Shown: positions 1,770 through 56,438 of the stretch, piece by piece
How positions within the stretch are numbered: position 1 is the first letter of the stretch
Layout of the letters: every line of letters starts with the position of its first letter
Assembly: GCA_964613815.1 (NCBI GenBank)
Contig: CAZTKG010000002.1
Span: 23,737 to 87,736, forward strand
Direction: 5' to 3'
Length of the DNA: 64,000 nt
DNA from: an uncultured Gammaproteobacteria bacterium
Lineage (GTDB): Bacteria > Patescibacteriota > Patescibacteriia > UBA9934
Position numbers and translations under genes: made by a program
The notes under the pieces: generated by a model
What the model was told of the DNA's origin: nothing
The model's input: the letters and a program-made list of their open reading frames with translations, nothing else
Database searches by the model: none

Positions 1770-4700
1770 ATGAGTAAGCCTTATGATCGTCAGAAGAGTC
1801 GTTTATTTGCTCGATCGGAGATCGAGAGAGGTATTCTTGATAGGCGAGATGAGCGACATGATGAGTTTTTGGAGGCTAAAGGCATGACGGAGAAGGAGTT
1901 GCAAGATGAGCGGGTTCGACAGGATTGGTATTCTGGGATTGGTATCCATCTTCCTAATATTTCTCGGGATGAGCGATGGGGTCTTTCTGATGAAGTAGAT
2001 CATGTTTTTTCGTTAAGCGGCAATGGAGCGGAAGAGTTTATTCATCAAGCTTTGCGTGATCGTGACCATGAGTTAGCTTCTTGTATCGCTGTCCAGGTTT
2101 CGAATGTACGTATTCCAATGGGTTTGTATCGTCTTGGTTTGAGGTCGACCTTTTCGGATATAAAGGTTTTGGATGGGTACGTCCGGCAAGAGTATTCAAA
2201 GCAAGATTTGAAGGATGGCGCTGAGGGTTTTCAGGATTTGTCATTAAAAGCTCGCGGGGATGAGATGGCTACAATTTTTGCTAAATGGTTTTCTGAACGG
2301 ATGTATTCTGTTGATTTGCATGATAAGGCATTGGCCTACGAAAGGGGTTCACATGTCGTAGATTTGAAGTCCCATAACCGGAATTTTTTGCGTCGTGCAT
2401 TGCGGGATCAGGACGCTTCTTCTTGTGATTTTTTTTGTCAGACTGTTTTGTTTGAGATGCCCGTTCAAGTTCGAGAAGATTTTTTTAAATTTTCCATGGA
2501 TGCGGAGATTGCTTTACGGCTCTTTAGTTCCCCCGCGCTTACTCAGCGATTATTTGATGGGGGAGATGTTCGAAGTGTATTAAAACGTGCTTTTGTTGAG
2601 AGGGTTGAGGATTGGAGATTTGCTGATGAGGAGGGGGGGCAGTTAGGTGATGCGGAAAAAGCTTTTTTGTCTACTTTGGATGAAGATGACTTAATAAACT
2701 CGCCGAGCTTTATTAAAAGCATTTTAGATAGCGGGCTTTTTGCGGGGGAGGAGGAGTTCTTGACATTTTTTGATTTTGATTCATCGTTTTTCCGTCGTGT
2801 TGAAGGGGGTTTGTTTCATGATGATATCTCGGTAATTGATAGGATTCGGCTTGCGCGAATGTTGCCTAGTTTAAATTGGATGGGTATCTCCGCTGTTTTG
2901 GAGGAGGCAGGTATTGCGGTTGCAGATCGGATCCCTGAAGAACAACTTGAATATTTACAACGTGTCGTTTCTTTTGGGCAGAATGTTGATCGAGAGATTT
3001 TTTTGGCGAGAAGTGAGTTTAGCATTAGTCCGTTTCAAGCTGAAGTTTTGAAGAGCGATTTCCCCGCAGCTTTTTTGCGGGATGGTCGTGGGAGACTTGA
3101 TTATGATCTTATCGCGGATCACTTGAGATTTGATGTGAGTCATTATGGTAGGGTTGAGGATTTGTCGATGGAGGATGAAGAGGGGGAGGTTTACGAATCT
3201 GATAATCAAATTTGGTTTGCGCGCATGAGAGAATTGTTTGGTGCTGAGATTGCGATTAAGTATGGTAATCGTCTTGGGCTTTCTGTGCATGATGCTTATT
3301 TTGCCGTTGATTCCATCATTGCTTTACAGGCACTCAGTGGTGAAACTCCAGATCGATTTGGGCAGAATATTTTGTTGCAAGTTGCAAAAGATGGGCAGGT
3401 TTATCGGTCGGGATTTGCACAGCATGAATTAAATGCTATCTCGCAGTTACTTGAGGGGAGGGACTTGAATCAGCTATTGGAGCAGGCCAAGGCTTTTTCT
3501 GCAATTGATGTTTTACAAACATGGGTTCGTGGCGTTGAGCGTGATCCATCGCGTCCGTTTTCTAGTTGGAAGGGGCTCCGGAACTATGCATCCATGGTTC
3601 GTTTGCTTGATCGGTCGGATTTTTTAACCGAGCTGCAGCATGAGACCGATCCTCGAAAACGTGTTTATTTTGAACGATTGATTTTGCATGAAAACGTTGA
3701 TACTGGAAAGGTTTTGATGTTTCGAGAAGATCCGGCTGCATTTTTGGATATTGATGATGGTCATACGGATGCCGAGGTGAATAAGGTTAAAAAGCCGTCA
3801 AATTATCTTTCGTTGCCGTTTTTGGGTCTTGATGGCAAGGATATGCGAGATGCGCTCATTGGGGGTTCTCTTGATAAGATTCAGACGTTACCTCCGATGG
3901 AGAGGGAGTATAGGCTTTATGATTCGCCTGAGAATGATCCGAGCATTCCTCGTGTTTTGCATCGGTTTATACAGGAAGCTGTTGGTAAGCGACGATTTGG
4001 TATACCGGGAAAGGCTAAGCATCCCGGGAAGGTATTTTCTCGTATTCAGCGATGGTGTAAGAGGGAGGGGGTTCGATGGAGGAATGTTTGGCAGGATCCT
4101 GTTGGATTGATGCAGCTTTCTCATGAGCAGCGCGAGGCGCTAGAGGAGATTGTTTTTGATGATGACATTGGCTTGTTGCGGCCAAATGGGGAGGTCTACC
4201 GGATGAAGCTTGGAGCGAAGAGTGATCCTGAAATGGTCATCGCAGGTAACGATACGGCAAGTTGCATGCCTTTTGGGTCAGGTAAGAATAATGTATACAT
4301 GTTTAATCCCAATTGTGCTCAAATCGTGCTTGAGCGAAAGAATGCGGAAGGGGAGTGGCGTACTGTGGCTCAATCTGTTGTCAATATTGATATGGAGACC
4401 GAGATGGATGTTCCTGCGATATTGGGTGCGTATAAACGTCAGGGGCATATTAATGATGTTGTTGCGGCGACGGATTTTGGGAATAGAGAGGTGATTGCAT
4501 GCGACAATATTGAGGTGGCGAAAAATGCGCAAGGGAAGGCTTCGACATTCATTTCTGAAGCCTATCGGCGTTTTATGACGGATTATTTGGATGTGCATGC
4601 GGAGGGTCTTGAGGTTGATGCGACTCGGGTTGTTGTTGGGAAGGGGTATACGCCTGCTGCACTTGGTTTTGATCAGATTGATAATCATTTTATTCCGCAG

Positions 4701-5348
4701 GCCCCAATGGGATATTCGGATAACTCTGGTGAAAAGTGTTTTGTTTTGGAGACTGGATTGGCGGAATGTGAGGCTCCTGTGCGGAAAGGGGTTTCTCGTA
4801 TGACGACGCGTGATGCTATCGCTGTTACCTCTATTGAGGGGAAGGCTTATGCTGACAATGCATCTCTTTTGGAGAATTTGCATGGCATGCAGAATAATAT
4901 TATTGGGATGGAAATTGCGAATGCGTATTTTGAGCGGCCGAATTTGTCGTTCATGTATCGGAATACGCGCGGGATTCCTCAGGGGTATATTCTTGCGTAT
5001 GAGGGGCGTACGAAAGATGGGGTTCGGCAGGTGTATATTTCTGATTTGGCTGCACGGCCGGGTAGCCGTTTAGCTGGAGGGAAGTTGATTCGGGAGTTTT
5101 TTGAGAGTTATTTAGGCGCTTATCAAGAGGGTGATGAAGATATGCTTCCGATTTTTACGAATGCTCGTGGAAAGACGAGTTATCAGATTTTGACTAGGCA
5201 GTTTGAGCGAATGGCAACGAAGGTTGGGCTTGTTGCGGAGATGGATGTTGTTGGCCAGCGGAATGAGGGAGGTGATGAATTTTTTGATGTGCGGGTTTAT
5301 CTTGGGAGGGATGCAGAGGAGGTTGAGAGGCAGAGGGCTAAGTTTTAG
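1770..5348 (+). CDS. large (1192 aa) hypothetical cytoplasmic protein, no recognised domain; possible GNAT-like fold at the C-terminus
   Basis: Uninterrupted 3.6 kb ORF with no TM segments. The C-terminal ~150 aa (VYISDLAARPGSRLAGGKLIREF) weakly resembles an acyl-CoA N-acyltransferase motif A. Confidence 0.8.
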   Translation: MSKPYDRQKSRLFARSEIERGILDRRDERHDEFLEAKGMTEKELQDERVRQDWYSGIGIHLPNISRDERWGLSDEVDHVFSLSGNGAEEFIHQALRDRDHELASCIAVQVSNVRIPMGLYRLGLRSTFSDIKVLDGYVRQEYSKQDLKDGAEGFQDLSLKARGDEMATIFAKWFSERMYSVDLHDKALAYERGSHVVDLKSHNRNFLRRALRDQDASSCDFFCQTVLFEMPVQVREDFFKFSMDAEIALRLFSSPALTQRLFDGGDVRSVLKRAFVERVEDWRFADEEGGQLGDAEKAFLSTLDEDDLINSPSFIKSILDSGLFAGEEEFLTFFDFDSSFFRRVEGGLFHDDISVIDRIRLARMLPSLNWMGISAVLEEAGIAVADRIPEEQLEYLQRVVSFGQNVDREIFLARSEFSISPFQAEVLKSDFPAAFLRDGRGRLDYDLIADHLRFDVSHYGRVEDLSMEDEEGEVYESDNQIWFARMRELFGAEIAIKYGNRLGLSVHDAYFAVDSIIALQALSGETPDRFGQNILLQVAKDGQVYRSGFAQHELNAISQLLEGRDLNQLLEQAKAFSAIDVLQTWVRGVERDPSRPFSSWKGLRNYASMVRLLDRSDFLTELQHETDPRKRVYFERLILHENVDTGKVLMFREDPAAFLDIDDGHTDAEVNKVKKPSNYLSLPFLGLDGKDMRDALIGGSLDKIQTLPPMEREYRLYDSPENDPSIPRVLHRFIQEAVGKRRFGIPGKAKHPGKVFSRIQRWCKREGVRWRNVWQDPVGLMQLSHEQREALEEIVFDDDIGLLRPNGEVYRMKLGAKSDPEMVIAGNDTASCMPFGSGKNNVYMFNPNCAQIVLERKNAEGEWRTVAQSVVNIDMETEMDVPAILGAYKRQGHINDVVAATDFGNREVIACDNIEVAKNAQGKASTFISEAYRRFMTDYLDVHAEGLEVDATRVVVGKGYTPAALGFDQIDNHFIPQAPMGYSDNSGEKCFVLETGLAECEAPVRKGVSRMTTRDAIAVTSIEGKAYADNASLLENLHGMQNNIIGMEIANAYFERPNLSFMYRNTRGIPQGYILAYEGRTKDGVRQVYISDLAARPGSRLAGGKLIREFFESYLGAYQEGDEDMLPIFTNARGKTSYQILTRQFERMATKVGLVAEMDVVGQRNEGGDEFFDVRVYLGRDAEEVERQRAKF

Positions 5349-7248: not shown

Positions 7249-7947
7249 ATGGATTTTGTTGTAAAGCAGGATGCTTTTTCTGGTCCGCTTGGACTTTTGT
7301 TGGATTTGTTAAATCAGCGAGAGCTTGAGATTAAGGATGTGGCACTTGCGGAGATTGCAGAGGATTATTTGGGATATCTTGATGCGCACGAGCCGCCGCC
7401 GGATGAGATGGCGGATTTTTTGGTTGTGGCGAGTCGGCTTATTTATTTGAAGAGTCGGGAGTTGATGCCTTATTTGCGGACTGAGGAGGAAGAAGAGGAG
7501 GTGCAGAAGCTTGAGGATCAGTTGCGGTTGTATCGGATGTTTGTGGAGGCGGCAGATAAGCTGGAGGCTCGGTTTGTGAGTGATGCGAGAATTGTTCCTC
7601 GGCCGTTTGTGAAGATTGAGGCAGCGCCTGAGGGGTTTGTGATGTCGGAAAATGTGACGGTTGATTCTTTGCATGGGGCGATGAAGGGGCTTTTGAAGAA
7701 ATTGGAGCCGTTTTTTGCGCTTCGGCAGGTGCATATTGATCGGGTGAAGTCGGTGCAAGAGAGAATCGGGGAATTGAAGGGGGCGATTGCGACGCGGGCG
7801 AAGATGCGGTTCAAGGAGGTGATGCATGGGGCGAAGAATAAGGCGGAGGTTGTGGTGAGTTTTTTGGCGCTTTTGGAGCTTGTGAAGCAGCGGGTTGTGA
7901 CGGCGACGCAGAGTGAGGATCGTGATATTCTTATAGAGCGTGTATGA
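7249..7947 (+). CDS. scpA: segregation and condensation protein A
   Basis: ScpA-like N-terminus (LLLDLLNQRELEIKDVALAEIAEDYL). ~232 aa, directly followed by scpB. Confidence 0.85.
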   Translation: MDFVVKQDAFSGPLGLLLDLLNQRELEIKDVALAEIAEDYLGYLDAHEPPPDEMADFLVVASRLIYLKSRELMPYLRTEEEEEEVQKLEDQLRLYRMFVEAADKLEARFVSDARIVPRPFVKIEAAPEGFVMSENVTVDSLHGAMKGLLKKLEPFFALRQVHIDRVKSVQERIGELKGAIATRAKMRFKEVMHGAKNKAEVVVSFLALLELVKQRVVTATQSEDRDILIERV

Positions 7948-11275: not shown

Positions 11276-11352
11276 TGGTGGCTGGAGTGGGGCTCGAACC
11301 CACGACCTAAGGCTTATGAGTCCTTCGCTCTAACCAACTGAGCTACCCAGCC
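11276..11352 (-). tRNA. tRNA-Met (anticodon CAU; could alternatively be tRNA-Ile2/lysidine type)
   Basis: Cloverleaf GGCTGGG-TA-GCTC..GAGC-..CTCATAA..-GTGGGTTCGAGCCCCAC-TCCAGCC-A-CCA, with CCA encoded. Confidence 0.85.
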
Positions 11353-13020: not shown

Positions 13021-13093
13021 ATTTGTTGACAAAAATGGGGTGAAAATGTATATTGCGCCTGCGGGGTAGAGCAGTCTGGTAGCTCGTTGGGCT

Positions 13094-13733
13094 CGACCCG
13101 AAATTAGTTTGAACTTTTCATGACAAAGTTAAAAGGTGATATTGCGGAGCAAGCGGCGATCCTTCATGCTTTGAAACGAGGTTGGGAAGTGTTGATTCCA
13201 AACGGTGATCGACTTTCGTATGATCTTGTTTTCGATGTTCATGGTTCGCTTGTCAAAATTCAGGTCAAGTCTTCTTGGTTTGACCAGAACCGGAAAAATC
13301 ATGTTGTTGATTCTCGTAGAACTAAGACGAATCGTCGTATTATGAAGCGGGAATTGTATCAATTTGGTGATTTCGATTTTGCTCTCGTATATGTCGATTC
13401 TCTCGATATTTTTTATGTATTTCCTTTTGAAGAATTTGTCAGCTACAAAAGCGAGATTCACTTGGTAGAATCTGATAAACGTCAGAGAAAGCCGCGTTCT
13501 GCAGCGTTTCGTGATTCTTGGAACTTAATTTCATTATGGGCTGCGTAGTGCGAAAGCGTTACGTGACTCCTGTCAAATTCGGGGAAGCCTTTTGCAATGG
13601 TAATCCCGAGCCAAGCCCGCAAGGGAAGGTGTAGAGACTTGATGGCAGGCACCCTAACGTTTAGTCGAGGGTGAAGGTAAAGTCCAGACCACAAATTCAC
13701 ATTTGTGAAGCAGTTAAAGCTGTAGTTGGTATG
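13094..13733 (+). other. group I intron (self-splicing type) inside tRNA-fMet
   Basis: Core-like R and S elements (GUAGAGACUUGAUGG and AAGGUAAAGUCCAGACC, matching the P7 strands), a terminal G, a U at the exon -1 position, and an ORF in a 5' peripheral loop. Confidence 0.65.
13120..13548 (+). CDS. intron-encoded putative homing endonuclease, PD-(D/E)xK / Hjc-like fold (I-Ssp6803I-type)
   Basis: 142 aa. KGDIAEQAAILHALKRGWEV...YDLVFDVHGSLVKIQVKSS parallels the Hjc/Vsr-type E...D...(E/Q)VK motif. It lies wholly inside the tRNA-fMet intron. Confidence 0.55.
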   Translation: MTKLKGDIAEQAAILHALKRGWEVLIPNGDRLSYDLVFDVHGSLVKIQVKSSWFDQNRKNHVVDSRRTKTNRRIMKRELYQFGDFDFALVYVDSLDIFYVFPFEEFVSYKSEIHLVESDKRQRKPRSAAFRDSWNLISLWAA

Positions 13734-13805
13734 CATAACCCAAAGGTCACTGGTTCAAATCCAGTCCCCGCAACCAAAAGATCTTCTGCATGGCAGGGGA
13801 TTTTT

Positions 13806-13840
13806 TGTTTAAAAAAATAAGCCCGAGAATGGGCTTAGCG
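13806..13840 (-). terminator. intrinsic terminator for the - strand gene (taagccc-gagaat-gggctta, then U7 on the - strand); a T-run also precedes it on the + strand
   Basis: 7-bp stem flanked by A7/T6. The stop codon of the 13835-14431 gene sits inside the stem. Confidence 0.65.
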
Positions 13841-14431
13841 TGGCATGAGGGTGCTGGCGATGATTGTGGCCGCGTGACCTCCGATGTGGAGGGTTTTTGG
13901 TCTTGCCTTTCGTGGGAGGCGGGAATGTTCGATGGAAGTGATGGTGGTTTCGGCTTCGTCTGCGAGTGATTCGTGGAGGCGTGTGCGTAGGATGCGTTTT
14001 GCCTCTTTACGTGTGTAGCAGATGTAGACGACGGGATGGCCATCTGGGGTGAGGAAGGCGATGGTGAAGATTGCGGGAGGCTGTTGGCTTTCGGGGTTGA
14101 TGGTTACATCTGCGTAGAGGATGCATGGGGAGGTTCTTGGAAGGGGGCGCTGGATGGCCGTTCCTTCAATCATTGAGGCGAGCCAGAAGGCGGTGAAGCC
14201 TTGGATGTTGAGTTTGGTGGATGAGGCGTTTTCCGGGAGGCTTGAGTTGTCTACTTGGTTGAGACACTGTTTGATTCTTTTGGAATCGACGTGCCTTTCG
14301 ATGAAGTCTCGTGTTTGTCGTTTTGAATGACAGACGGTGATGCAGGGGGTTCTTCCGATGGCGCCGATGATGAGGACGTTGGGGGTTGTGGGGGACGGTG
14401 CTGTTGGGAGGGAGATGTAGGAGATTCTCAC
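13835..14431 (-). CDS. hypothetical protein (198 aa)
   Basis: GTG start at 14431 preceded by AAGGA, with a -35/-10 promoter upstream (TTGACA..AATATA). No recognisable family. Confidence 0.55.
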   Translation of the reverse strand: MRISYISLPTAPSPTTPNVLIIGAIGRTPCITVCHSKRQTRDFIERHVDSKRIKQCLNQVDNSSLPENASSTKLNIQGFTAFWLASMIEGTAIQRPLPRTSPCILYADVTINPESQQPPAIFTIAFLTPDGHPVVYICYTRKEAKRILRTRLHESLADEAETTITSIEHSRLPRKARPKTLHIGGHAATIIASTLMPR

Positions 14432-14461
14432 GATTGTCCTTTTGTGAATGAGCGAAGGGGT

Positions 14462-14491
14462 TATATTGTGTTATTTTTTTGGTTTTGTCAA
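14462..14491 (-). promoter_or_regulatory. sigma-70-like promoter on the - strand (TTGACA-N18-AATATA) upstream of the 198-aa gene
   Basis: Hexamers read on the - strand; ~30 nt upstream of the GTG start. Confidence 0.4.
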
Positions 14492-14927
14492 CTTCTGAAC
14501 AGCAAAACGCGGCCTAGGTGGGCCGCGGAGAGGGGAGAGGGAGAGAGGTCAGGGTCATGCCGATGGCGATGATGGTGAGACCGATGAGGATGGCTCCGTC
14601 GGGGATAATGAGTCCGCCGGCGGAGGTGGTGTAGAGCATTGTTTTGAGCACTTTTGGACCTTGAGGGTTTGGGTTGTGGTTTGAGTTTAGCAGGAATTAT
14701 AGAAATGGGAAGACGGTCCTGTGGGGGTCGTCAGTTGGTGGGGGTGGGGAAGATGAGGAGGCTGATCGCTGGCGTTGCGATGAATGCCGCGATCAGGTCC
14801 AGAAGTAATTCTGGGGTGATGAGTTCTATGGTTGCTCCCGGGAGCTGTTCGAGGAGGCGAAGGGGCTCGTCTCGTCGATGGGCTGCCGAAGGGGCTGGGG
14901 TTGGACCAGGCCCTTCGGTGAGGTGAG

Positions 14928-15407
14928 CTAGAATGCTCTGTCCCTCGGGGGGATGTTTCCGAGGTAGAGCTGTGTGTTCCGGGGGGTGAGTCCGGGGTTT
15001 TTCGTGGCGAGTTCTGCGCGGTGGGAGCGCAGAGAATCAGTTTCGAAGAACTCGACGTCGGCACCGGGGTTGGTGGTTTCGATGTCGATCTTGATGATCT
15101 CGATGCTGGCATCGAGATCGATCAGGCTGGTGCCGGTGATGGTGTGATAGGTCACATCATCGCCGTCAGTAGCGATCACCTGCATGGCCAGGGGGTCCCA
15201 GCCAAGGGTGATGTTGAGAGAGGGGATGAAGGGGAACAAAGAACCTTCTTTTGGGCTCTTGAGGAAGCGAAGGGATTTCGCTGCCTCGTTGAGCCATCGA
15301 GTTATGGCTCGATGGGGAAGCGTTTGGGGATGAAGGGGAGGTAGATCAGCGCGGTCCAGAGCACGAGGTCGATTGGTGATACCGAGGAGTTCGAGAAGGA
15401 TGTTCAT
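14928..15407 (-). CDS. hypothetical protein (159 aa)
   Basis: ATG preceded by AGAGG. Protein-like composition (…TDGDDVTYHTITGTSLIDLDASIEIIKIDIETTNPGADVEF…). The overlapping + ORF is low-complexity. Confidence 0.45.
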   Translation of the reverse strand: MNILLELLGITNRPRALDRADLPPLHPQTLPHRAITRWLNEAAKSLRFLKSPKEGSLFPFIPSLNITLGWDPLAMQVIATDGDDVTYHTITGTSLIDLDASIEIIKIDIETTNPGADVEFFETDSLRSHRAELATKNPGLTPRNTQLYLGNIPPRDRAF

Positions 15408-15462
15408 GTGAGCCTCTGAAAAGGCGAGGGGGTGAATCGTCTGTTCAGTAGGCTGCCGGAAG

Positions 15463-15684
15463 CTAGGTGTTCCGGCGTTTGAGTTTGGCGATGGTTTCCT
15501 GGAGGTTGACGATGAGGGTTTGAGTTCCCCATGTGGTCTCGATCCAGGCTAGGAGTTTGATTATTCCTTTGGAGGGGTGGTGTGGGTGGAAGGTTTCTGC
15601 GGCGAAGTCGATGACCTCGCCGTTTCGGATGATGTTGGCGGTGACGGTGTTGGGGTCAGGTGCGGCGATGGTGGCGAAGAGCAT
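15463..15684 (-). CDS. hypothetical small protein (73 aa)
   Basis: ATG preceded by GGAGAAAAC. Confidence 0.4.
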   Translation of the reverse strand: MLFATIAAPDPNTVTANIIRNGEVIDFAAETFHPHHPSKGIIKLLAWIETTWGTQTLIVNLQETIAKLKRRNT

Positions 15685-15772
15685 TTTGTTTTCTCCGAAG
15701 GGTTCAGCGGATGAGGAGCTAAGCGGTGCATTTTGCTTTGCTGTCTCAATGGGCTGCCGGAGCGTGACGAGG

Positions 15773-16033
15773 TCACGGTCCGGCGAGTCTCAGGCCGTTG
15801 CCTGGGAGAGGAAGGCGTGGATTTCCTTTCTTTCGTTGAGTTTGAGGTGTGGGAGGGGGTAGTAGTGTCCCCAGCCTTCGAATTCGATGAGCATGGCGGT
15901 GAAGAACGCGAAAGGGGGCGATCGGGGCGACGACGAGAGCGATGCCGGCAGCACCGAGAAGGGCGCCGGTTAGGGCGATTGCCATCAGGGATGAGGCGAA
16001 GAGGGCGAGGAGGGCGATGGCGATGGTGGTCAT
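15773..16033 (-). CDS. hypothetical small membrane protein (86 aa)
   Basis: N-terminal 40 aa strongly hydrophobic. No clear RBS. Confidence 0.25.
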   Translation of the reverse strand: MTTIAIALLALFASSLMAIALTGALLGAAGIALVVAPIAPFRVLHRHAHRIRRLGTLLPPPTPQTQRKKGNPRLPLPGNGLRLAGP

Positions 16034-16466
16034 GCGATATTCCGGTTCTGATGTGAGGGGGCTTGATCAAGATGTTTCTCATCTTTTCACGTCTATATAA
16101 TAGCACATTTTTGTGTTTTTGTCAAGGTGTTTTGGACAGTATTTATGTGTGTAAAATGGCTAATTTTGGCGTAGTTTTGGTTGTTTTTGTGGTTTTTTGT
16201 TAGGGTATTTTTGTGTGGAATTTGCGGAGGGGAGGATCTCTCCGCAAGGTCGAGATGGGGGGAGGGGTGATTTTGATTTCGAATGGATCCTTCGTTCCTC
16301 AGGATGATGTGGGGGAGGGGGGTCCCTGCCTGTGGCAGATCTGGCTTTGCCAGATTTCGACTCCGCGTTGCTTCGCTCAGGATGACATGGAAAGAGAGGG
16401 GGGATTTTGAAGGTGTTCACATGTTTTTTGGTTGGGAGGTTTGAGCTTGATATACTAGAGATCCAT

Positions 16467-30834: not shown

Positions 30835-32631
30835 ATGCTATTACAACGATTGAATCTAGCGATTCAGGTGACTGCGACGATTGTGGTTGTTTTTGCGTTT
30901 TTGTTTGGGTTTGGCGATGTTGTGTTGGCGCAGGATTTGGATGCTGTTGGAGATGCTGCAGGGCTTTCTGATGCGGGGCTTGAAGTCATCATTGGACGGA
31001 TTATCGCTGTCTTCTTAGGACTCTTGGGGATCATTCTTCTTGTGATTATCATGTATGCCGGGTATTTGTGGATGACGGCAGGAGGAAATACGGATCAAGT
31101 AGTGAAGGCGAAGAAATGGATTATTAATGGGGTGGTTGGACTTGTGATTACGTTGAGTGCGTATGTGATCGCTTCATTCATTATGAATCTTTTCTACGAT
31201 GCAGGCCTTTGGGGAGGTGGTGGCGACGGGCCGGATTCGAATCCTCCCGTTTTGGAGCCGGGATCCAACTCTCTTGGGAGTGGAGGTATTCAATCGCATT
31301 ATCCGGATCGGTATGCGACGGATATTGCTCGAAATGCGAAGGTGATGGTGACGTTTGGTACTAAGATGGCAATTGGTTCGTTTGCGAAGGGATACGATGA
31401 TAATGGGACACCTACAGATGTTAGCGACGATGTTGTTGCGACAGCGCTCAATACAGAAAATATTTTGATTTATGTTACAAGTGAAGGGGAGGAGTATGCT
31501 TTGGGTGAGGGTGATGTAGAGGTATCGTTTACGGAAGATCTGAGGACGTTTGTCTTTGACCCTTCTGCGTATTTAGGAAGTGCTACGGAGGATGTTGGGT
31601 ATACGGTGTATCTTTCTGATGATATTGAGAATTCGGATGGGGATACGGGGGATGTTGATGATGGTGGGTATTGGTGGACGTTTACGGTGGGGACTGAGAT
31701 TGATTTGACGCCTCCGCAGATTAAAAGTATTTCGCCTGCAGAGGGGCTTTCGTATGCTCGGAATATTGTTGTTGAGGTAACGTTTGATGAGGCGATTGAT
31801 CCAACAAGTGCGACGGGGACGTATGCTGCTGATGGATCTGGGAGTTTTGAAAATATTCAGATTGAAGCGGATTCTAGTGGGCTTGTGGAAGGGACGTATG
31901 TGATGAGTAATGCGTACAAAACGGTTACTTTTGTGAGTTCGGAGGCTTGTGGAACAAATAGTTGCGGGCAGACGATTTATTGTTTACCTGGTGGGGAGGA
32001 TCAGACGGTTACGGTGTTTGGTGCCACGCCTGGAACGGATAACCCTCAGATTGATGTATATCCATACGATGGAATTGGAGATGTTTCTGGCAATGCGCTT
32101 GATGCGGATGGGGACGACGCGGTTGATAGCGCTGGAGAACAATATGCTTGGGCGTTTACGACGACGAATGATTATAATGATGATGCTCCATACATCACGG
32201 CGGTTACCCCGGATGTTGCTGAGGAGGATTTGGCATTAGATGCAGATATTCTTGTGACGTTTGACTCTGTCATGATGAGTTCTACGCTTTCGAGTGAGAA
32301 CGTGGAGGTTGATAATAGTCCTGATCACGAGCTTTGGTTTTCGATTGAAAGTGAAGGGTTGGCGAGTGATGGAAGTGTTGTAGAGGATTCGAGTACGACG
32401 ATTACGAATACGCAGATGGAAGTTAACCATGGGGTGTTCTATGAGTCTGGAGATGATTTTACCTATCTGTATTCGGTTGATGTGGGTGACGGAGTTTTGA
32501 ATCAGTATCAGAATTGTTTTGTTCCTGGGGAGGGGCCTGGAGTTGGAAGTACTGAATGTGGCACAAATAATACGTATCCTTACTGCTGCCAGGGGGTTCC
32601 AAGCGCTGAGGAATGTTCGTTTTTTGAGTAA
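30835..32631 (+). CDS. secreted/surface protein (598 aa) with pilin-like N-terminal module, Ig-like beta-rich middle and Cys-rich C-terminus
   Basis: Signal peptide (cleavage VLA|QDLDAV). The mature N-terminus has two hydrophobic helices separated by MTAGGNTDQVVKAKKW. The rest is acidic and G/T/S/D-rich, ending in a Cys cluster (CGTNNTYPYCCQG...EEC). Confidence 0.85.
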   Translation: MLLQRLNLAIQVTATIVVVFAFLFGFGDVVLAQDLDAVGDAAGLSDAGLEVIIGRIIAVFLGLLGIILLVIIMYAGYLWMTAGGNTDQVVKAKKWIINGVVGLVITLSAYVIASFIMNLFYDAGLWGGGGDGPDSNPPVLEPGSNSLGSGGIQSHYPDRYATDIARNAKVMVTFGTKMAIGSFAKGYDDNGTPTDVSDDVVATALNTENILIYVTSEGEEYALGEGDVEVSFTEDLRTFVFDPSAYLGSATEDVGYTVYLSDDIENSDGDTGDVDDGGYWWTFTVGTEIDLTPPQIKSISPAEGLSYARNIVVEVTFDEAIDPTSATGTYAADGSGSFENIQIEADSSGLVEGTYVMSNAYKTVTFVSSEACGTNSCGQTIYCLPGGEDQTVTVFGATPGTDNPQIDVYPYDGIGDVSGNALDADGDDAVDSAGEQYAWAFTTTNDYNDDAPYITAVTPDVAEEDLALDADILVTFDSVMMSSTLSSENVEVDNSPDHELWFSIESEGLASDGSVVEDSSTTITNTQMEVNHGVFYESGDDFTYLYSVDVGDGVLNQYQNCFVPGEGPGVGSTECGTNNTYPYCCQGVPSAEECSFFE

Positions 32632-32633
32632 TT

Positions 32634-35600
32634 ATGAGATTTAAGGAGTGGTTACAATTTGGATTTCGATGGTTACCGATGGTTGCTGTTTTTGGCTTTT
32701 TGTTGTGTGGCGAGGTGGCATTTGCACAGGATCTTGATGCGGTTGCGACTGAGTCTGGGCTTGGACAGGCGGATTTGTATGCGACGCTTGCTCGGATTGT
32801 TAATGTCTTTTTAGGATTCCTGGGAATCATTTTGGTTTGTATTGTTGTTTATGCGGGATTTTTGTGGATGACGGCAGGGGGGAACACCGAGCAAATCACG
32901 AAGGCAAAAAAATGGGTTATCAATGCTTCAGTTGGATTATTGATTATTTTATCTTCTTGGGGTATTACGACATTTATTTTGAATAAATTGATGGGTGCGG
33001 CGGGATATACGAGTGATGGTTCCGGAGATGATGGAGGGGGGGGATCTGGTGGAGGAATTCCTGGAGGTGATGTTGCGACATTTAGGGTGAATGATTTTAG
33101 TCCTGAAGGGGAGGTTTCTATTCGTAATATTGAAGTTACCATTACATTTAATGACAAGCTTGATCCTGATTCGATTGATGGGAATGTCGTTGTGACGGAT
33201 TTGGATTCTGGAGATACGGTGGATGGGACGTTAGAAGTGAGTGCGAATAAGGTGACTTTTACGCCTTTGGCCACTTGTGATGAGCCGAATGAAGATTATA
33301 ATTGTTTTGATGAATTTACGAATTACAGCGTTGCGGTTTCGACGAGTGTTTTGGATGATGATGGAACGAGTTTGAGTTGTTCAATTTATCCTTGTACGGC
33401 TGAATTTACAAGTGGGGATGTTGTTGATACGGACGGACCTGAGGTTGAGTTTGTTTATCCTGAGAGCGGGGAGCGAATTGAGCCTTACACATCTGTGTTT
33501 GAACAGGTGTATGCCGAGGATGACTATGCGCTTTCTGGTGCAGAATTTGCGATTGATGATGAGACTGATGTGTTAGAAGCTGTGAGCGTGGATGATAATG
33601 CATCGAGTGCGTATATAGAGACGTATTGGGATACGACGGATTACGATACGGAGAGTTACTATCGGTTATATGCGACGGTGACGGATTTGGCCGGGAATGA
33701 GAATACGGATTCTGTACGTGTGTATATTGATCCTGCACATTGCTATAATGACGTGATGGATGAGGATGAGGAAGATGTTGATTGTGGAGGGAGTTGTGGG
33801 GCCTGTGATGGAGATGAGTGTTCAGAAGATGGAGACTGTGCGAGCGGGTCATGCGTTGATAATGTTTGTGTTGCTGAGCCGATGATTTCGTCGATTAGTC
33901 CTGAGGATGGGGCCGTGGGCACGCTCGTGACAATTAATGGAGAGAATTTTGGATCGCGAACTGGGACGGTTTATTTTGAGGACGGTGATGGTGCGTTGTT
34001 GGAGGCTGGGACTTCTGCGATTTGCGGGGATAGTTGGGATGATGATGAGATTGTGATTGAGGTTCCGGAGGGGGCTGCGGATGGGGCGATTACGGTTGTT
34101 GCGACGAATGGATATGATGACGCAACGAATGATGATAGGGGTCCTGTGATTGATGATTTTGAGGTAAATAGTGTTGAGCGGCCTGGTATTTGTCGGATTT
34201 ATCCGGATGATGGGGAGAGTGGAGATGAAGCGACGGTGTATGGGGTGAATTTTACGAGTGAAGCAGACATGAGTGTTTACTTTGGCACTGATGAGGTGCG
34301 TACGTTTGGAGATTGGGATTCTGACTCCGTTGTTGTGACAGTGCCTTCGCTTGAAGATGGGGATTATGATGTGATGGTTGATGTTGATGGGGTTGAGTCT
34401 AATACGGTTGAGTATGTGGTTGAGGCATCTGTGGAAGATGGGCCTATTTTAAGCGGACTTTCTCCTTCGAATGGAGGAATTGGTCAATATGTGACGTTGC
34501 AGGGGTCTGATTTTGGAAGTACTCAGGGGCTCGTATGGATTGTGAGTCAGAGTACTGGAAATGCTGCGTATGCTTCGGTTGCGTTTCCGGATGAGTGTGG
34601 GGTGGATTTTTGGTCTGACGATGAGGTTATTGTGAAGATTCCTTCTGAATATACGAATGGGCAAGCAATTGAGTATACGACGCATGATGTGTATGTAGAT
34701 GCGGCGTATTTGGATGAGGATTCGAATGCTCTTGATTTTACGATTACGACAAGTGATCCGAGTCCAGGGCTTTGTGCGCTCAGTCCGGATGAGGGAGATG
34801 TTGCGGCTGACAGTGGGCTTCAAGTGACGCTTTATGGTGAGAATTTTGGGTCTGATGTTGGGTCTGTTCGGTTTTACAATGAGGTTGAGGCTGCGGTGGA
34901 CTCATGGAGTGAGGGAGAGGTGGTAGTGACTGCTCCTAGTTCTGCTTTGACAGGGCCCGTGACACTGTATTCTGCGGATGATGATGAAAGTAATACCGTG
35001 AATTTTGAGGTTGGTGAAGGAGATTCTGATGATGAAGAAGAGGCGACTGAGGGGGGATATGCTTGGTATTTTTCGACTGGAGATATTCCAGATTCTCCTA
35101 GTGTGCTTGTGGAATGTACGGACACTTCTGTAAGTGGCGTGCCGAATAGTCGATTTTTGAGTGATGAGGGCGCTTGTTTGAATGCGGATGTGTTTGTGCG
35201 TTTTGCGAGTAGTGTGTACGAGTCGACTGTTCAGGATGGAGAGGGAATTCTTGTGGAAGAATGTAGCGATTCTAGCTGCGATGATGTTGTCGCGACCGTT
35301 CCTGGATCGGTGACTTTGGCTTGGGGCCGTGCGTTGACGTGGTCCGTGGATGGGGGTTATGAATCTGGACTGTTCAAGGCTGATACGTCGTATCAGGTAA
35401 CGATTTTGAGTACGGTTGTTTCCACGGATGGTGTTGAGCTTGGGAGTGATGTGTCTTGGAAATTTAGCACAGGGGCTGCGGATATGGATTGCGCGATTGA
35501 GAAGATTTATGTCACGCCTGAAACGGCAGATGCAGATTCGTATGGACAGGACCAGGAATTTTTGTCAAGCGCTGGAACGTTTGACTGTCAGGTGCTCAGT

Positions 35601-38600
35601 TCTGATTCGTTTGATTGGGATTGGCAGATTGATGAGTCTTATGCCTCTATATCTGCTGGAGGGTGCGATACGATGAGTGGTCAGGAGTGTGCGCTCGCGA
35701 CAGCACTTGCGGAAGGCGAGGCTGATGTCCTTGTGACAGAAAGTGATAGCGGTCTTTCTGAAGGCGCTTTGTATCGGATTGATTTTAGTGATCCTGCAGT
35801 GAGTGATTGGTGGCCGAGTTGTGATGAGGCTTGTACGAATGCGGATGTCGGCGCTTCGTTTGATACATCGATTAACATGGACAGTAGTCGAGGTATGACC
35901 GCAGAAGATGCTGGTGCGTTCATGGTGTATGCGTGTGATAATGAGCTGTGCAGTTCTTATTCAGATTTGTTTGCTTCTAGTGCGACGTGTACGGATTATG
36001 CGGATGATGGAGGGTGTGTTGAGTTGTCTGCGAATTTTCTTGATCGAATGGACAGCGCGACGTTTTATCGTGCAACGATTTCAGGGAATTTGATTTCGAC
36101 GAGCGGGGTTGCGATTATTGGGACGAATTACGGCGACGATTTTAGCTGGACGTTTGGTGTGCGGGATGATGCGAGTGAATGTAGTGTTGATTCGATTGAC
36201 TTGTCTCCAGGAGATTCAAAGCATACGTATATTGGTAGCCGGGAGGTGTTTAGTGTGAATGCGTATGGTCCACGAGATGGATGTAGCACGACTGGACAGA
36301 AGCTTGTTTCTAGTGATTATGATTGGGACTGGGATGATCCGATTGAGAATGATGCCGATGTTTCTGAATGGGTGAAAGTGAATAGTAGCTTGATTGATGC
36401 GGATGCAGATGGGCCTGTTGAAGGCTGTACGTCTTCGTGTTTGCCTCAGGGGACGTCTACGTATGATGCAATTTGTGGAGATGGTGTCATTGGAGTTGCT
36501 GAAGATTGTGATGACGGAAATGCAAGTGATGGGGATGGATGCAGTTCGATTTGTTTGCGTGAAGGAGGGGATGTTGTTGGAACTTGTGGAGATGGAAGTT
36601 TGGATCGTGTTGCAGCGGATGGGGTTTATGATCAAGGGGGTGGAGAGGATTGTGATGATGGTGGCAATTCTGATGGAGATGGATGTAGCTCTGCTTGTTT
36701 GAACGAGGGCTCTTCTGGTACGACTCAATGTGGTAATGATGACATTGCTTATGATTGGCAGATTGGAGGGGAGGAGTGTGAGGATGCTGATGGAAATGCG
36801 AGTGGGGGTGATGGGTGTAGTGCGAATTGTTTGAATGAGGGTTCTGTTGCGATTACGGATGTTTATGGGGAGTGTGGAGATGGTGTGCTTGATACGCCGT
36901 ATGAGAGTTGTGATGATGGAAATACATCGGACGGGGATGGATGCGGCTCTACGTGTGTTCGAGAGGGAGGTGATGTTGTTGGGATTTGTGGGGATGGAAA
37001 CGTGGACCGCATTGCTGATGATGGGACGTATGCGCAAGGGGGAGGTGAAGACTGTGATGATGACGAGGGATGTAGTGATGATTGTTTGTGGCTTGGCTCT
37101 TCTTACAACTATGACGACGTTTCTGTTTGTGGCGATGGGGTGACGGGGGCTGGAGAGTATGACATGTGTGAATCTGGTGTACTTGGTGATCTTTCTGTTG
37201 ATAGTCTGCAGGTGGCGGAAATTTCGGATTTGGCGCCAACTCAGGTCGATAGCGCGACAAATATTTCAACATCAACTGTTCGAGTTGAGCTTGATGCGTA
37301 TGGGCTCTGGGATGAGACAGAGATGATTTTGTATTGCGGTGCAGAGACGGGGGCTGATTGTGAGGATACGACGTATGGCGTTGGTGAAAGTGGGTGTTGT
37401 AGTGCTCGTCCGACCGTGTCTTTGTATCCGTCTGGATCTGCCGTTTGTACGAATACGGCGTTTAGCGCTACGTTTAGTGAGAAGATTGATGTAGATACGC
37501 TTGAGGATCATGTGTTTGTGCGGCTTGATATTTCTAGTGCTTCTGATGGTGCGTGTCCGAGCAGTCATGATGTGTATGGGGATTCTGCGAGTGATGGATC
37601 TGTCGCGACTGGTTGGGATCGTTTTTGGGCATTTTTGATGCCTTGGACGAATGCGGCGAGTGATGGGGATTGTTTGATGGAGGTGACTGGATTTGATCAA
37701 ACGGCAGTTAGTGATACGGAGTATAAGGTCTCCATTACAACGGCATCTATATTGGAGGCTGAAGCGGATTATGAGCTTGTGGTGGTTGGTGATTCTGATG
37801 TTTTGGATGGAGATAAAGAGGGGGTTTTGAGTGCGCTTGGAGTGAGTATTGATGGGACAGCTTCTGGCACCGGAGAGATTGCGCAGGCGTTTACAACTGG
37901 GGAAGGAATTTGTTTGTTTGATATGGCGGTTGCGGAAGATACGGATGAAGATAGTCCTGGGTATTATCGAACGCAAAAAGAGTCGCATGGATTTTTGGCG
38001 ACGGCTTATTCTGTTGATGGAGGGGTTCAACAGGAGATTCAGTCCATGACTGGGGTGTATGAATGGTCATGGAGCGATTGGACTGTTGACGATGAAGATG
38101 TTTTTGAGATCGCGAGTACTGATGATGAGGCGGATGTTTCCGCGCTTGATGAGGATGGTGAGGCTAATGTGGTCGCGAGTGCCGTCATTACGGTGGATGC
38201 GACGGATGTTGATGAGGTTGGGCGTGTCGTTTCTGGAACAGAGGATGTCACCGCGGTGCTTTGTAATAACATTTGGCCTGTTATTGATGATTTCCCGTTT
38301 GTTGATGATTCTACATCTGCGATTAGTGGGGTTTCTGAAGGGTATGGCTGGATGAATTTTTCTACCTATTATTGTCGAGATGCGGGAAGTTCAGACAGTC
38401 GAGATGATGATTTGCCTGAACTTGAGGTTCTTGTAACGCCTTCTGTTGAATCTGAGACGGTCATGAAGGAATACTTTTTCCAGGTTCAGGATGGTTCTGG
38501 AGATGCAATTGGTGTTCGTATTGCCTCGAATGAGGAATATTTGACTCCGTTGGCTTGGTATGAGGATCGTGGATTTAGCGGATCGCCTTCTGAGCTTCAG

Positions 38601-55640: not shown

Positions 55641-56076
55641 GAGTGGACTCCTGGTGGGACGATGTGAGGATAGGTTGTTTAGTTGAAGTTGTCAAGGATG
55701 TTTGGTATGGTTTTGATGTTCTTTTGGAGGCTGAATGGCGATATGGGGGTGGGATCTGGATCGGCTTCGTCGTGGCTTGATTGCTGATCGTGGAGGTTCT
55801 GGTGCTGTGAGGGGGAGTACGTCTGATTATGCGCGAGACTCGGGTGATCCGTTGTCGATTGGGCGACTTGGAAAGTGTGGTTACAGGACACGTGCTGGCG
55901 ATTGTCTGCTCGGTTCATCATGCGCGTGTCGTGGGTCATTGAACGTTCCGCTTGAGTAGGTTGCTCGGCGGTTTTTTTGATACCAAAATCCCCGTGTGAG
56001 GAGGAGTTGGGTTTGTTTGGGGGGTGTTTTTTTGTTAAGTGTGTTTGAACTGTTGTGATATTATTGAGGCGGTCAA

Positions 56077-56430
56077 TTGGAGGGAGTGTTGTTTCCTATT
56101 TCTGATGGATGTCTCATGGAACTTGCTGGGCGGATTCATCCTTTGGTTCGTGATGGGGATGGTTGTTTGCGGGCGATTCAGCCGGTGGAGCTTCGGGCTT
56201 CGGGATTTCATCGAGGGGCTCGTATGATGGAGCGGGTGGTTGGGCTCGATGTGGTTGCGGAGGTGCGGACTTCGCATGCTGGGGAGCCTTCTGTGGCTGA
56301 AGTGCTGGCTCAGATTCCGGTGGGTCATCTTGGTTCGGTTACACACTTTGAGAGTGTGATTGAGGTGCTGGCTGGTGAGGCTAGCAACTGCGTTGCTAAG
56401 ACTGTTCTTTATTCTTTGCCCTCTGCGTAA
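56077..56430 (+). CDS. hypothetical protein (117 aa)
   Basis: ORF only. Confidence 0.25.
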   Translation: MEGVLFPISDGCLMELAGRIHPLVRDGDGCLRAIQPVELRASGFHRGARMMERVVGLDVVAEVRTSHAGEPSVAEVLAQIPVGHLGSVTHFESVIEVLAGEASNCVAKTVLYSLPSA

Positions 56431-56438
56431 ACTCCGTT

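Follow-up and report, generated by a model that had tools for sequence, protein, structure and literature searches.

A group I intron encoding an I-Ssp6803I-family endonuclease interrupts an initiator tRNA gene in a member of the Patescibacteria

The initiator tRNA gene (tRNA-fMet) of the cyanobacterium Synechocystis sp. PCC 6803 reportedly carries a group I intron that encodes the homing endonuclease I-Ssp6803I, an observation attributed to Biniszkiewicz et al. in 1994 and to Bonocora and Shub in 2001. This intron and its enzyme are the prototype of such elements (see also PMC3984707), and the structure of I-Ssp6803I, PDB 2OST, is credited to Zhao et al. (2007) in PMC3384342. A survey of 4,934 complete genomes (Nakagawa et al. 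2026, mSystems, PMC13011429) describes position 33/34 of tRNA-fMet as a well-characterized intron site, lists subgroup IC3 introns without an open reading frame (ORF) at this site in other phyla (e.g., ~303 nt in Bacteroidota, Table S5), and finds fMet introns encoding an endonuclease of family PF11645 in two Cyanobacteriota only. Among the Patescibacteria tRNA introns of complete genomes the same survey has no IC-type; those that interrupt tRNA-Asn or tRNA-Asp genes belong to subgroup IA, lie at position 35/36, and in some cases carry HNH endonucleases, and the authors warn that draft genomes may reveal more introns (PMC13011429). Here we analyze a 64,000-nt stretch of contig CAZTKG010000002.1 (assembly GCA_964613815.1), hereafter the window, in which the initiator tRNA gene of an Uhrbacteria-like member of the Patescibacteria very probably harbors a mobile tRNA-fMet 33/34 group I intron, of the class termed IC3 in the literature, with a gene of the I-Ssp6803I endonuclease family in its P1 loop.

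The interruption of the tRNA-fMet gene by a group I intron was confirmed on the forward strand of the window, with boundaries exactly where an initial annotation of this DNA had placed them. The 34-nt 5′ exon (13060-13093, TGCGGGGTAGAGCAGTCTGGTAGCTCGTTGGGCT, ending in GGGCU) supplies tRNA positions 1-33, comprising the acceptor strand, the D arm, the 5′ strand of the anticodon stem, C32, and U33. It is followed by a 640-nt intron at position 33/34 (13094-13733), the last base of which is the omega-G, G13733, and by a 43-nt 3′ exon (13734-13776, CATAACCCAAAGGTCACTGGTTCAAATCCAGTCCCCGCAACCA, beginning with CAUAACCC) that runs from C34, A35, and U36 to the encoded CCA. Joined after U33, the exons form the canonical 77-nt cloverleaf of the tRNA-fMet that the initial annotation had described, with the anticodon CAU and three consecutive G-C pairs (29-31:39-41) contributed by GGG and CCC directly above the anticodon loop. 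The D stem (GAGC/GCUC) provides A11:U24, a hallmark of initiator tRNAs. Bacterial initiator tRNAs usually have a C1×A72 mismatch and no Watson-Crick 1:72 pair; the pair found here is U1:A72 (window positions 13060 and 13772), a weak Watson-Crick pair that also occurs in two Nitrospirota loci (L014 and L033), and mutant E. coli tRNAs with weak 1:72 pairs are reportedly still formylated. Two substitutions in the exons, C1 to U and C28:G42 to U28:A42 in the anticodon stem, both follow the loss of C on this strand of the host DNA.

The split gene is missed in the 64-kb window both by default ARAGORN, which returns only three other tRNAs, and by the Rfam tRNA model; once introns are allowed, ARAGORN reports a tRNA-Met(cat) that spans 13060-13776 and contains 640 nt of intron at position 35. 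Only one other tRNA of the window, at 11276-11352 on the minus strand, has a CAU anticodon; because it has G1-C72 and lacks a G-C triplet, it is not an initiator tRNA and is of the elongator Met or the Ile2/lysidine type. Its non-standard A-G pair at 31:39 was flagged by the covariance model. Judged from the 64-kb window, splicing of the interrupted gene is likely to be needed to make initiator tRNA.

That the insert is a group I intron was borne out by the covariance-model scan which the initial annotation had suggested as a check. Rfam Intron_gpI (RF00028) matched 13521-13707 over the full model length (1-253) and scored 81 bits, where the gathering score is 50, with an E-value of 5.3e-19; this score exceeds those of the 14 related loci that lie above the threshold (51-74 bits; 20 loci scanned). 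The two core elements singled out in the initial annotation, GUAGAGACU and AAGGUAAAGUCC, are the two strands of the guanosine-binding helix P7 (13634-13639 and, with AGUCC, 13681-13685), both of which are invariant in 33 related introns. When the helices were mapped onto a MAFFT alignment of these 33 introns, standard pairs filled 96.2% of cells, compared with 25-45% after the 3′ partners had been slid by 1-3 columns; changes on both sides were present in 24 of 46 pairs, and none of 500 shuffles reached any of the observed measures. The split tRNA, the intron core, and the motifs of the ORF are not chance patterns.

Compensatory changes affect all eight pairs of the P2 hairpin (13544-13563, 8 bp, GAAA loop, 97% of cells paired) and five of the seven pairs of the P8 hairpin (13651-13672), and covariation extends to all five pairs of P9 (13696-13700/13705-13709) and to three of the four pairs of P9a (13711-13714/13719-13722). 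The P3 helix (13569-13575/13643-13649), which has three pairs with double changes, encloses P4 (13579-13584/13604-13609), P5, P6 (13610-13611/13629-13630), P6a (13616-13618/13623-13625, GCAA loop), and the 5′ strand of P7. Little variation is seen in P4 and P6, limited to G-U/G-C or C-G/U-G changes, and both are always paired. An alternative P9, CACAAAU/AUUUGUG, was replaced by the family-wide register UUCAC/GUGAA, which abuts P9a and covaries. The intron probably belongs to subgroup IC3, since its core motifs CAAAUUCGGGGAAGCC, GGUAAUCCCGAGCCAAGC, and GGUGUAGAGACU match those of fMet 33/34 introns classed as IC3 (PMC13011429 Table S5).

The internal guide sequence, UUAUGGGCU (13534-13542), does not adjoin the 5′ splice site and lies 440 nt downstream of it. 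Its bases 13537-13542 form a 6-bp P1 with the exon end GGCU and the intron bases CG (13090-13095), in which U13093·G13539 is the U·G wobble at the splice site after U13093; its bases UUAUG (13534-13538) pair over 5 bp with CAUAA of the 3′ exon (13734-13738) to give P10. An extension of P1, P1a (13100-13110/13521-13532), closes the loop that holds the ORF, and cofolding returned the same P1 and P1a in 32 of 34 introns (the window and its 33 relatives). The P1a helix is kept despite lineage-specific sequence (GCAGGAUUA/UAAUCCUGC and GUGAAGUGAG/CUCAUUUCAC; in the window GAAAUUAGUUU/GAACUUAAUUUC), and the motif AAUGGGCU at the guide position is conserved in all related introns. A very short P1, in which exon GGGCU would pair with the adjoining intron GACCC, would leave a loop of one nucleotide and was rejected for that reason.

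The ORF (13120-13548, forward strand, 142 aa) is intact, with neither a frameshift nor an internal stop. Consistent with the earlier view that it encodes a PD-(D/E)XK homing endonuclease of the I-Ssp6803I kind, the product matches PDB 2OST with an E-value of 1.5e-57 over 136 residues (2-137) and Pfam PF11645 (PDDEXK_5) with 158.4 bits against a cutoff of 26.1 (E 1.4e-46, profile positions 3-137 of 138); NCBIfam holds no model that matches the ORF. The E...D...QVK pattern and the GWEV motif that had been read from the translation are present. The accompanying suggestion, that Q replaces a catalytic E and may leave the nuclease attenuated, is not supported, as QVK occurs in I-Ssp6803I itself (the motif reads KVQVKSSW in 2OST) and is a family invariant. 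Across 25 aligned family members E10, D35, and Q48-V49-K50 never vary, and in the alignment with 2OST they fall on identical residues; the E, D, and QxK residues are the catalytic ones of the I-Ssp6803I family. Apart from the attenuated nuclease, the interpretation given in the initial annotation is supported.

The last nine codons and the stop codon of the ORF overlap the 3′ strand of P1a, the guide sequence, and the 5′ strand of P2. The frame ends in S-L-W-A-A-stop with its UAG (13546-13548) within P2, and it is because the ORF stops here that its product is shorter than the 2OST chain (142 aa vs 151 residues). The C-terminal QWAA..GET.V that relatives conserve likewise arises by translation of the guide sequence and the P2 hairpin; it is therefore probably the RNA, and not the protein, that has shaped this tail. 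In Nitrospirota/Methylomirabilota-type introns (L007-L011, L014, L019, L020, L022, and others) the endonuclease frame remains open through the guide, P2, and P3-P6 and stops at a UAG inside the invariant GGUGUAGAGACU (J6/7-P7), giving products of 177-192 aa with tails that are translated ribozyme core.

In the mechanism that we propose, transcription would start from a putative promoter directly upstream of the gene, a sigma-70-like TTGACA-17-TATATT (13026-13054, forward strand) with 11 of 12 consensus matches that ends 5 nt before tRNA position 1 and whose promoter function is suggested by that match. The guide would pair with the end of the 5′ exon to form P1, and an external guanosine bound in P7 would attack after U33. 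The guide would then re-pair with the 3′ exon as P10 and G13733 would enter the G site, so that ligation of the exons would yield the 77-nt initiator tRNA. The P1 and P10 pairings can be read from the sequence, and the chemistry would follow from membership in the group I family. The same transcript would serve as the mRNA for the endonuclease, which, by homology, would cut intron-less tRNA-fMet at the anticodon arm (predicted intron-less target site GCTCGTTGGGCTCATAACCCAAAGGTC), after which repair would copy the intron in. Since the guide and P2 share their sequence with the last codons of the ORF, translation of the ORF and folding of P1 and P2 would be mutually exclusive on any one RNA molecule.

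Compared with the Synechocystis intron, the element of the window resides in the same host gene at the same 33/34 site, its endonuclease is of the same family with the same E/D/QVK residues, and its core is of the sequence type found in the cyanobacterial tRNA-fMet introns L017 and L024. It differs in its Patescibacteria host, in the U1:A72 pair of its tRNA, and in the UAAA loop of P9a. With the IC3 fMet introns that lack an ORF (PMC13011429) it shares the insertion site and the conserved core; unlike them, it carries an endonuclease gene. With the Patescibacteria introns in genes for tRNA-Asn or tRNA-Asp it shares the phylum and the property of being an anticodon-loop group I intron that default tRNA finders miss, and some of those introns also carry homing endonucleases, whereas the window intron sits at 33/34, has an IC3-type core, and encodes a PD-(D/E)XK enzyme. 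The window is a metagenome counter-example to the complete-genome survey, of the kind that its authors anticipated (PMC13011429).

The initial annotation had emphasized a genomic background very different from that of the cyanobacterial intron. The host is indeed no cyanobacterium: the topoisomerase I encoded in the window is 60-69% identical to proteins of Ca. Uhrbacteria and of the "Patescibacteria group", and these homologues place the host in the Patescibacteria with Ca. Uhrbacteria as the nearest named relatives. Such a background is, however, less exceptional than had been implied. A protein search returned 1,892 relatives of the endonuclease, some of which NCBI names "group I intron-associated PD-(D/E)XK endonuclease" (Patescibacteria, Nitrospiraceae, cyanobacteria), and 347 loci encode a relative when one genome per GTDB species is considered. 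None of the GTDB representatives with a gene for the endonuclease belongs to the window's own species, and the closest locus is 77% identical. Locus layouts, phylum spread, and the composition baseline were taken from the best 80 of the 347 loci, which cover at least 12 phyla and include four Patescibacteria loci. In each of the 38 non-cyanobacterial loci judged, the ORF lies inside a tRNA-fMet gene split at 33/34 by an intron of ~600-715 nt; three further non-cyanobacterial loci reach the contig edge after the 5′ half. The split gene was found in Nitrospirota, Methylomirabilota, Chloroflexota, Acidobacteriota, Bacteroidota, Pseudomonadota, Desulfobacterota, Omnitrophota, Armatimonadota, and Patescibacteria, the last with Uhrbacteria, Saccharibacteria, and Sungiibacteria. 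The cyanobacterial loci L017 and L024 have the same layout with the ORF in the intron. A crude neighbor-joining tree of the endonucleases groups them mostly by phylum, with several exceptions.

Two of the loci are probably mis-binned: L008 ("Patescibacteria") has exons identical to those of Methylomirabilota loci and an endonuclease nearly identical to Methylomirabilota/Nitrospirota proteins, and L074 ("Acetobacteraceae") nests within Nostoc. A different layout prevails in filamentous cyanobacteria (L013, L023, L025-L027, L031, L034-L036, L038, L040, L042-L046, L048, L049, L051, L054, L055, L058, L060-L062, L064, L066, L068, L070-L076, L079, L080), where the PF11645 gene is free-standing in 37 of 38 loci, 61-1158 nt (mostly 75-115) downstream of a tRNA-fMet gene that has a ~244-nt ORF-less intron at 33/34. 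This arrangement may reveal the way in which the ORF moved into or out of the intron. It resembles the "collaborative homing" described for phages, in which a free-standing homing endonuclease gene lies beside an intron (PMC2790892, PMC3984707); the ORF of the window lies inside its intron, so that the layout is not applicable to it.

Base composition bears on how the element was acquired. The third codon positions of plus-strand host genes have GC skews of +0.47 to +0.96, and most minus-strand genes (18-28 kb) have GC3 skews of -0.71 to -0.84 on their own coding strand; since the coding-strand skew is opposite in the two sets, the bias follows the DNA strand and not transcription. Against this background the GC3 skew of the endonuclease ORF is +0.31 and its AT3 skew is -0.42, both beyond all values of the 80 relatives (GC3 skew -0.04 ± 0.10, maximum 0.23; AT3 skew -0.13 ± 0.10, minimum -0.35). 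Its third-position G/(G+C) of 0.65 falls below the 0.857 of the pooled same-strand host genes (binomial P = 3e-4) and above the mean of the relatives, ~0.48 as calculated from the GC3 skew of -0.04 (P = 0.011). The ORF thus stands between the extreme strand bias of the host and the baseline of its family, and the horizontal acquisition proposed in the initial annotation is plausible. These observations provide moderate evidence that the ORF was acquired horizontally and has been in the lineage long enough for partial amelioration, with its protein under purifying selection.

Over the whole window the plus strand has a GC skew of +0.35 and an AT skew of -0.19, and the most extreme gene (7249-7947) has 132 G and 3 C at third positions, a GC skew of +0.96. 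A skew of similar size was described for the Microgenomates genome Ch65 and its relatives (29.8% C vs 15.0% G) and was called unusual for the candidate phyla radiation (CPR) (PMC7143001); the lineage of the window differs in being Uhrbacteria-like and in having a strong AT skew in addition. The GC skew falls to 0.13-0.20 in 56000-64000, where the third positions of the genes at 58616-61547 are near-unbiased (GC3 skew -0.05 to -0.35) and those of 61664-62941 reach only +0.31. This drop could mark the approach to a replication origin or terminus, i.e., a skew switch, or more recently acquired DNA.

Several observations weigh against a splicing, mobile, and acquired intron. Splicing and cleavage are both predicted from homology and structure. 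The P9a loop is UAAA, compared with GAAA in most relatives, which could weaken a tertiary contact, and the Saccharibacteria locus L015 has the same UAAA loop. A 5-bp hairpin, UUGGG-CUCGA-CCCGA (13087-13101), in which UUGGG is exon and CCCGA is intron, could compete with P1. No Shine-Dalgarno-like sequence was found upstream of the ATG of the ORF, and expression of the endonuclease is uncertain for this reason. When the third-position composition of the ORF is set against that of the least-skewed host gene, no significant difference is seen (P = 0.13), and because of this the evidence for acquisition is only moderate. Lastly, the neighbor-joining tree groups the window loosely with Uhrbacteria and Saccharibacteria copies, which is as compatible with inheritance within the phylum as with recent transfer; the tree gives only a hint, as its terminal branches are long and it has no support values. 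As a separate observation, the hairpin at 13087-13101 mimics the anticodon stem and was scored as "terminator-like" in a scan.

We consider it unlikely that the intron is a fixed, immobile relic with a ribozyme that splices and an endonuclease that is inactive or attenuated. The QVK motif on which attenuation had been argued is the norm of the family, shared with I-Ssp6803I, and the frame is undamaged. Moreover, the ORF keeps all 55 of the alignment columns that are invariant in 24 relatives even though its synonymous sites have moved in the direction of the host bias, a sign that the protein is under purifying selection. What speaks for such a relic is the missing ribosome-binding site and the apparent want of current homing targets, as all six contigs examined carry the intron. 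A scan of JGI metagenome contigs for exact matches to the exon junction and T arm, aimed at an intron-less allele or a second copy, points the same way: all 16 matches belong to other organisms, none combines U1 with A72, and none shares the window flanks by blastn or tblastx, so that no intron-less allele with the exons and flanks of this organism appeared, a weak negative in a scan that had no positive control for the relevant samples.

Two further explanations would deprive the split gene of its role or of its host. If a second, uninterrupted tRNA-fMet gene elsewhere supplied the initiator tRNA, the split copy would be a pseudogene and its ribozyme dispensable, and the 64 kb examined belong to a contig of at least 579 kb. 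We nevertheless rate this as improbable, more so than the immobile relic, given that the ribozyme outscores the related loci scanned with all helices intact, that a near-consensus promoter precedes exons which fold into a flawless cloverleaf, and that the other CAU tRNA in the window is not an initiator. Patescibacteria genomes are small and usually have single copies of tRNA genes, which also counts against a pseudogene. The least probable explanation by far, to which we assign almost no weight, is an assembly or binning artefact in which an intron-bearing tRNA gene from, e.g., a cyanobacterium or Nitrospira was joined to a Patescibacteria contig. Mis-binned database entries of the L008 and L074 kind would lend it some credence. 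However, the ORF recurs in several samples, on ENA, JGI, and Logan contigs as long as 579 kb. Each of the six contigs fetched, which come from independent assemblies of different samples, matches the window at 100% identity through the tRNA and its two flanks, over up to 6.4 kb, which excludes a chimeric assembly. The ORF also shows part of the G/T strand bias of the host, to a degree not reached by any of the 80 relatives, and a nearest endonuclease relative of merely 77% identity likewise argues against an artefact.

With the mobile-intron reading preferred, we lean slightly towards a broader proposal that joins two parts, namely that the split gene is the sole initiator tRNA gene of a reduced genome and that the I-Ssp6803I-type intron has used homing into a near-universal target, the anticodon arm of tRNA-fMet, to spread over at least 12 phyla and to reach the CPR. 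Should the split gene be the only initiator tRNA gene, translation initiation in this organism would hinge entirely on a ribozyme that doubles as the mRNA for a selfish nuclease. With default settings, tRNA finders would list this genome as devoid of an initiator tRNA, which bears on judgements of completeness and gene loss in the CPR. The window adds an endonuclease-bearing IC3-type tRNA-fMet intron to the Patescibacteria, where the systematic survey, confined to complete genomes, has IA-type introns only and PF11645 only in cyanobacteria (PMC13011429), and the 347 loci indicate a horizontal spread of the intron much wider than the literature states. The result is a modest extension of a known distribution; the biology of self-splicing and homing is well established, and the element is mechanistically unsurprising.

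Elsewhere in the window, a T4SS_pilin/Big_5 protein of 598 aa is followed by an ORF of 3,328 aa (30835-42620), and an ORF of 1,192 aa at 1770-5348 has no Pfam match; these three are typical large surface proteins of the CPR. The ~2.6 kb directly 3′ of the tRNA gene (13835-16400) contain three minus-strand ORFs with no Pfam match (13835-14431, 14928-15407, and 15561-16106), are annotated inconsistently by the gene callers of the different assemblies, and have a locally raised GC content of 0.54-0.60.

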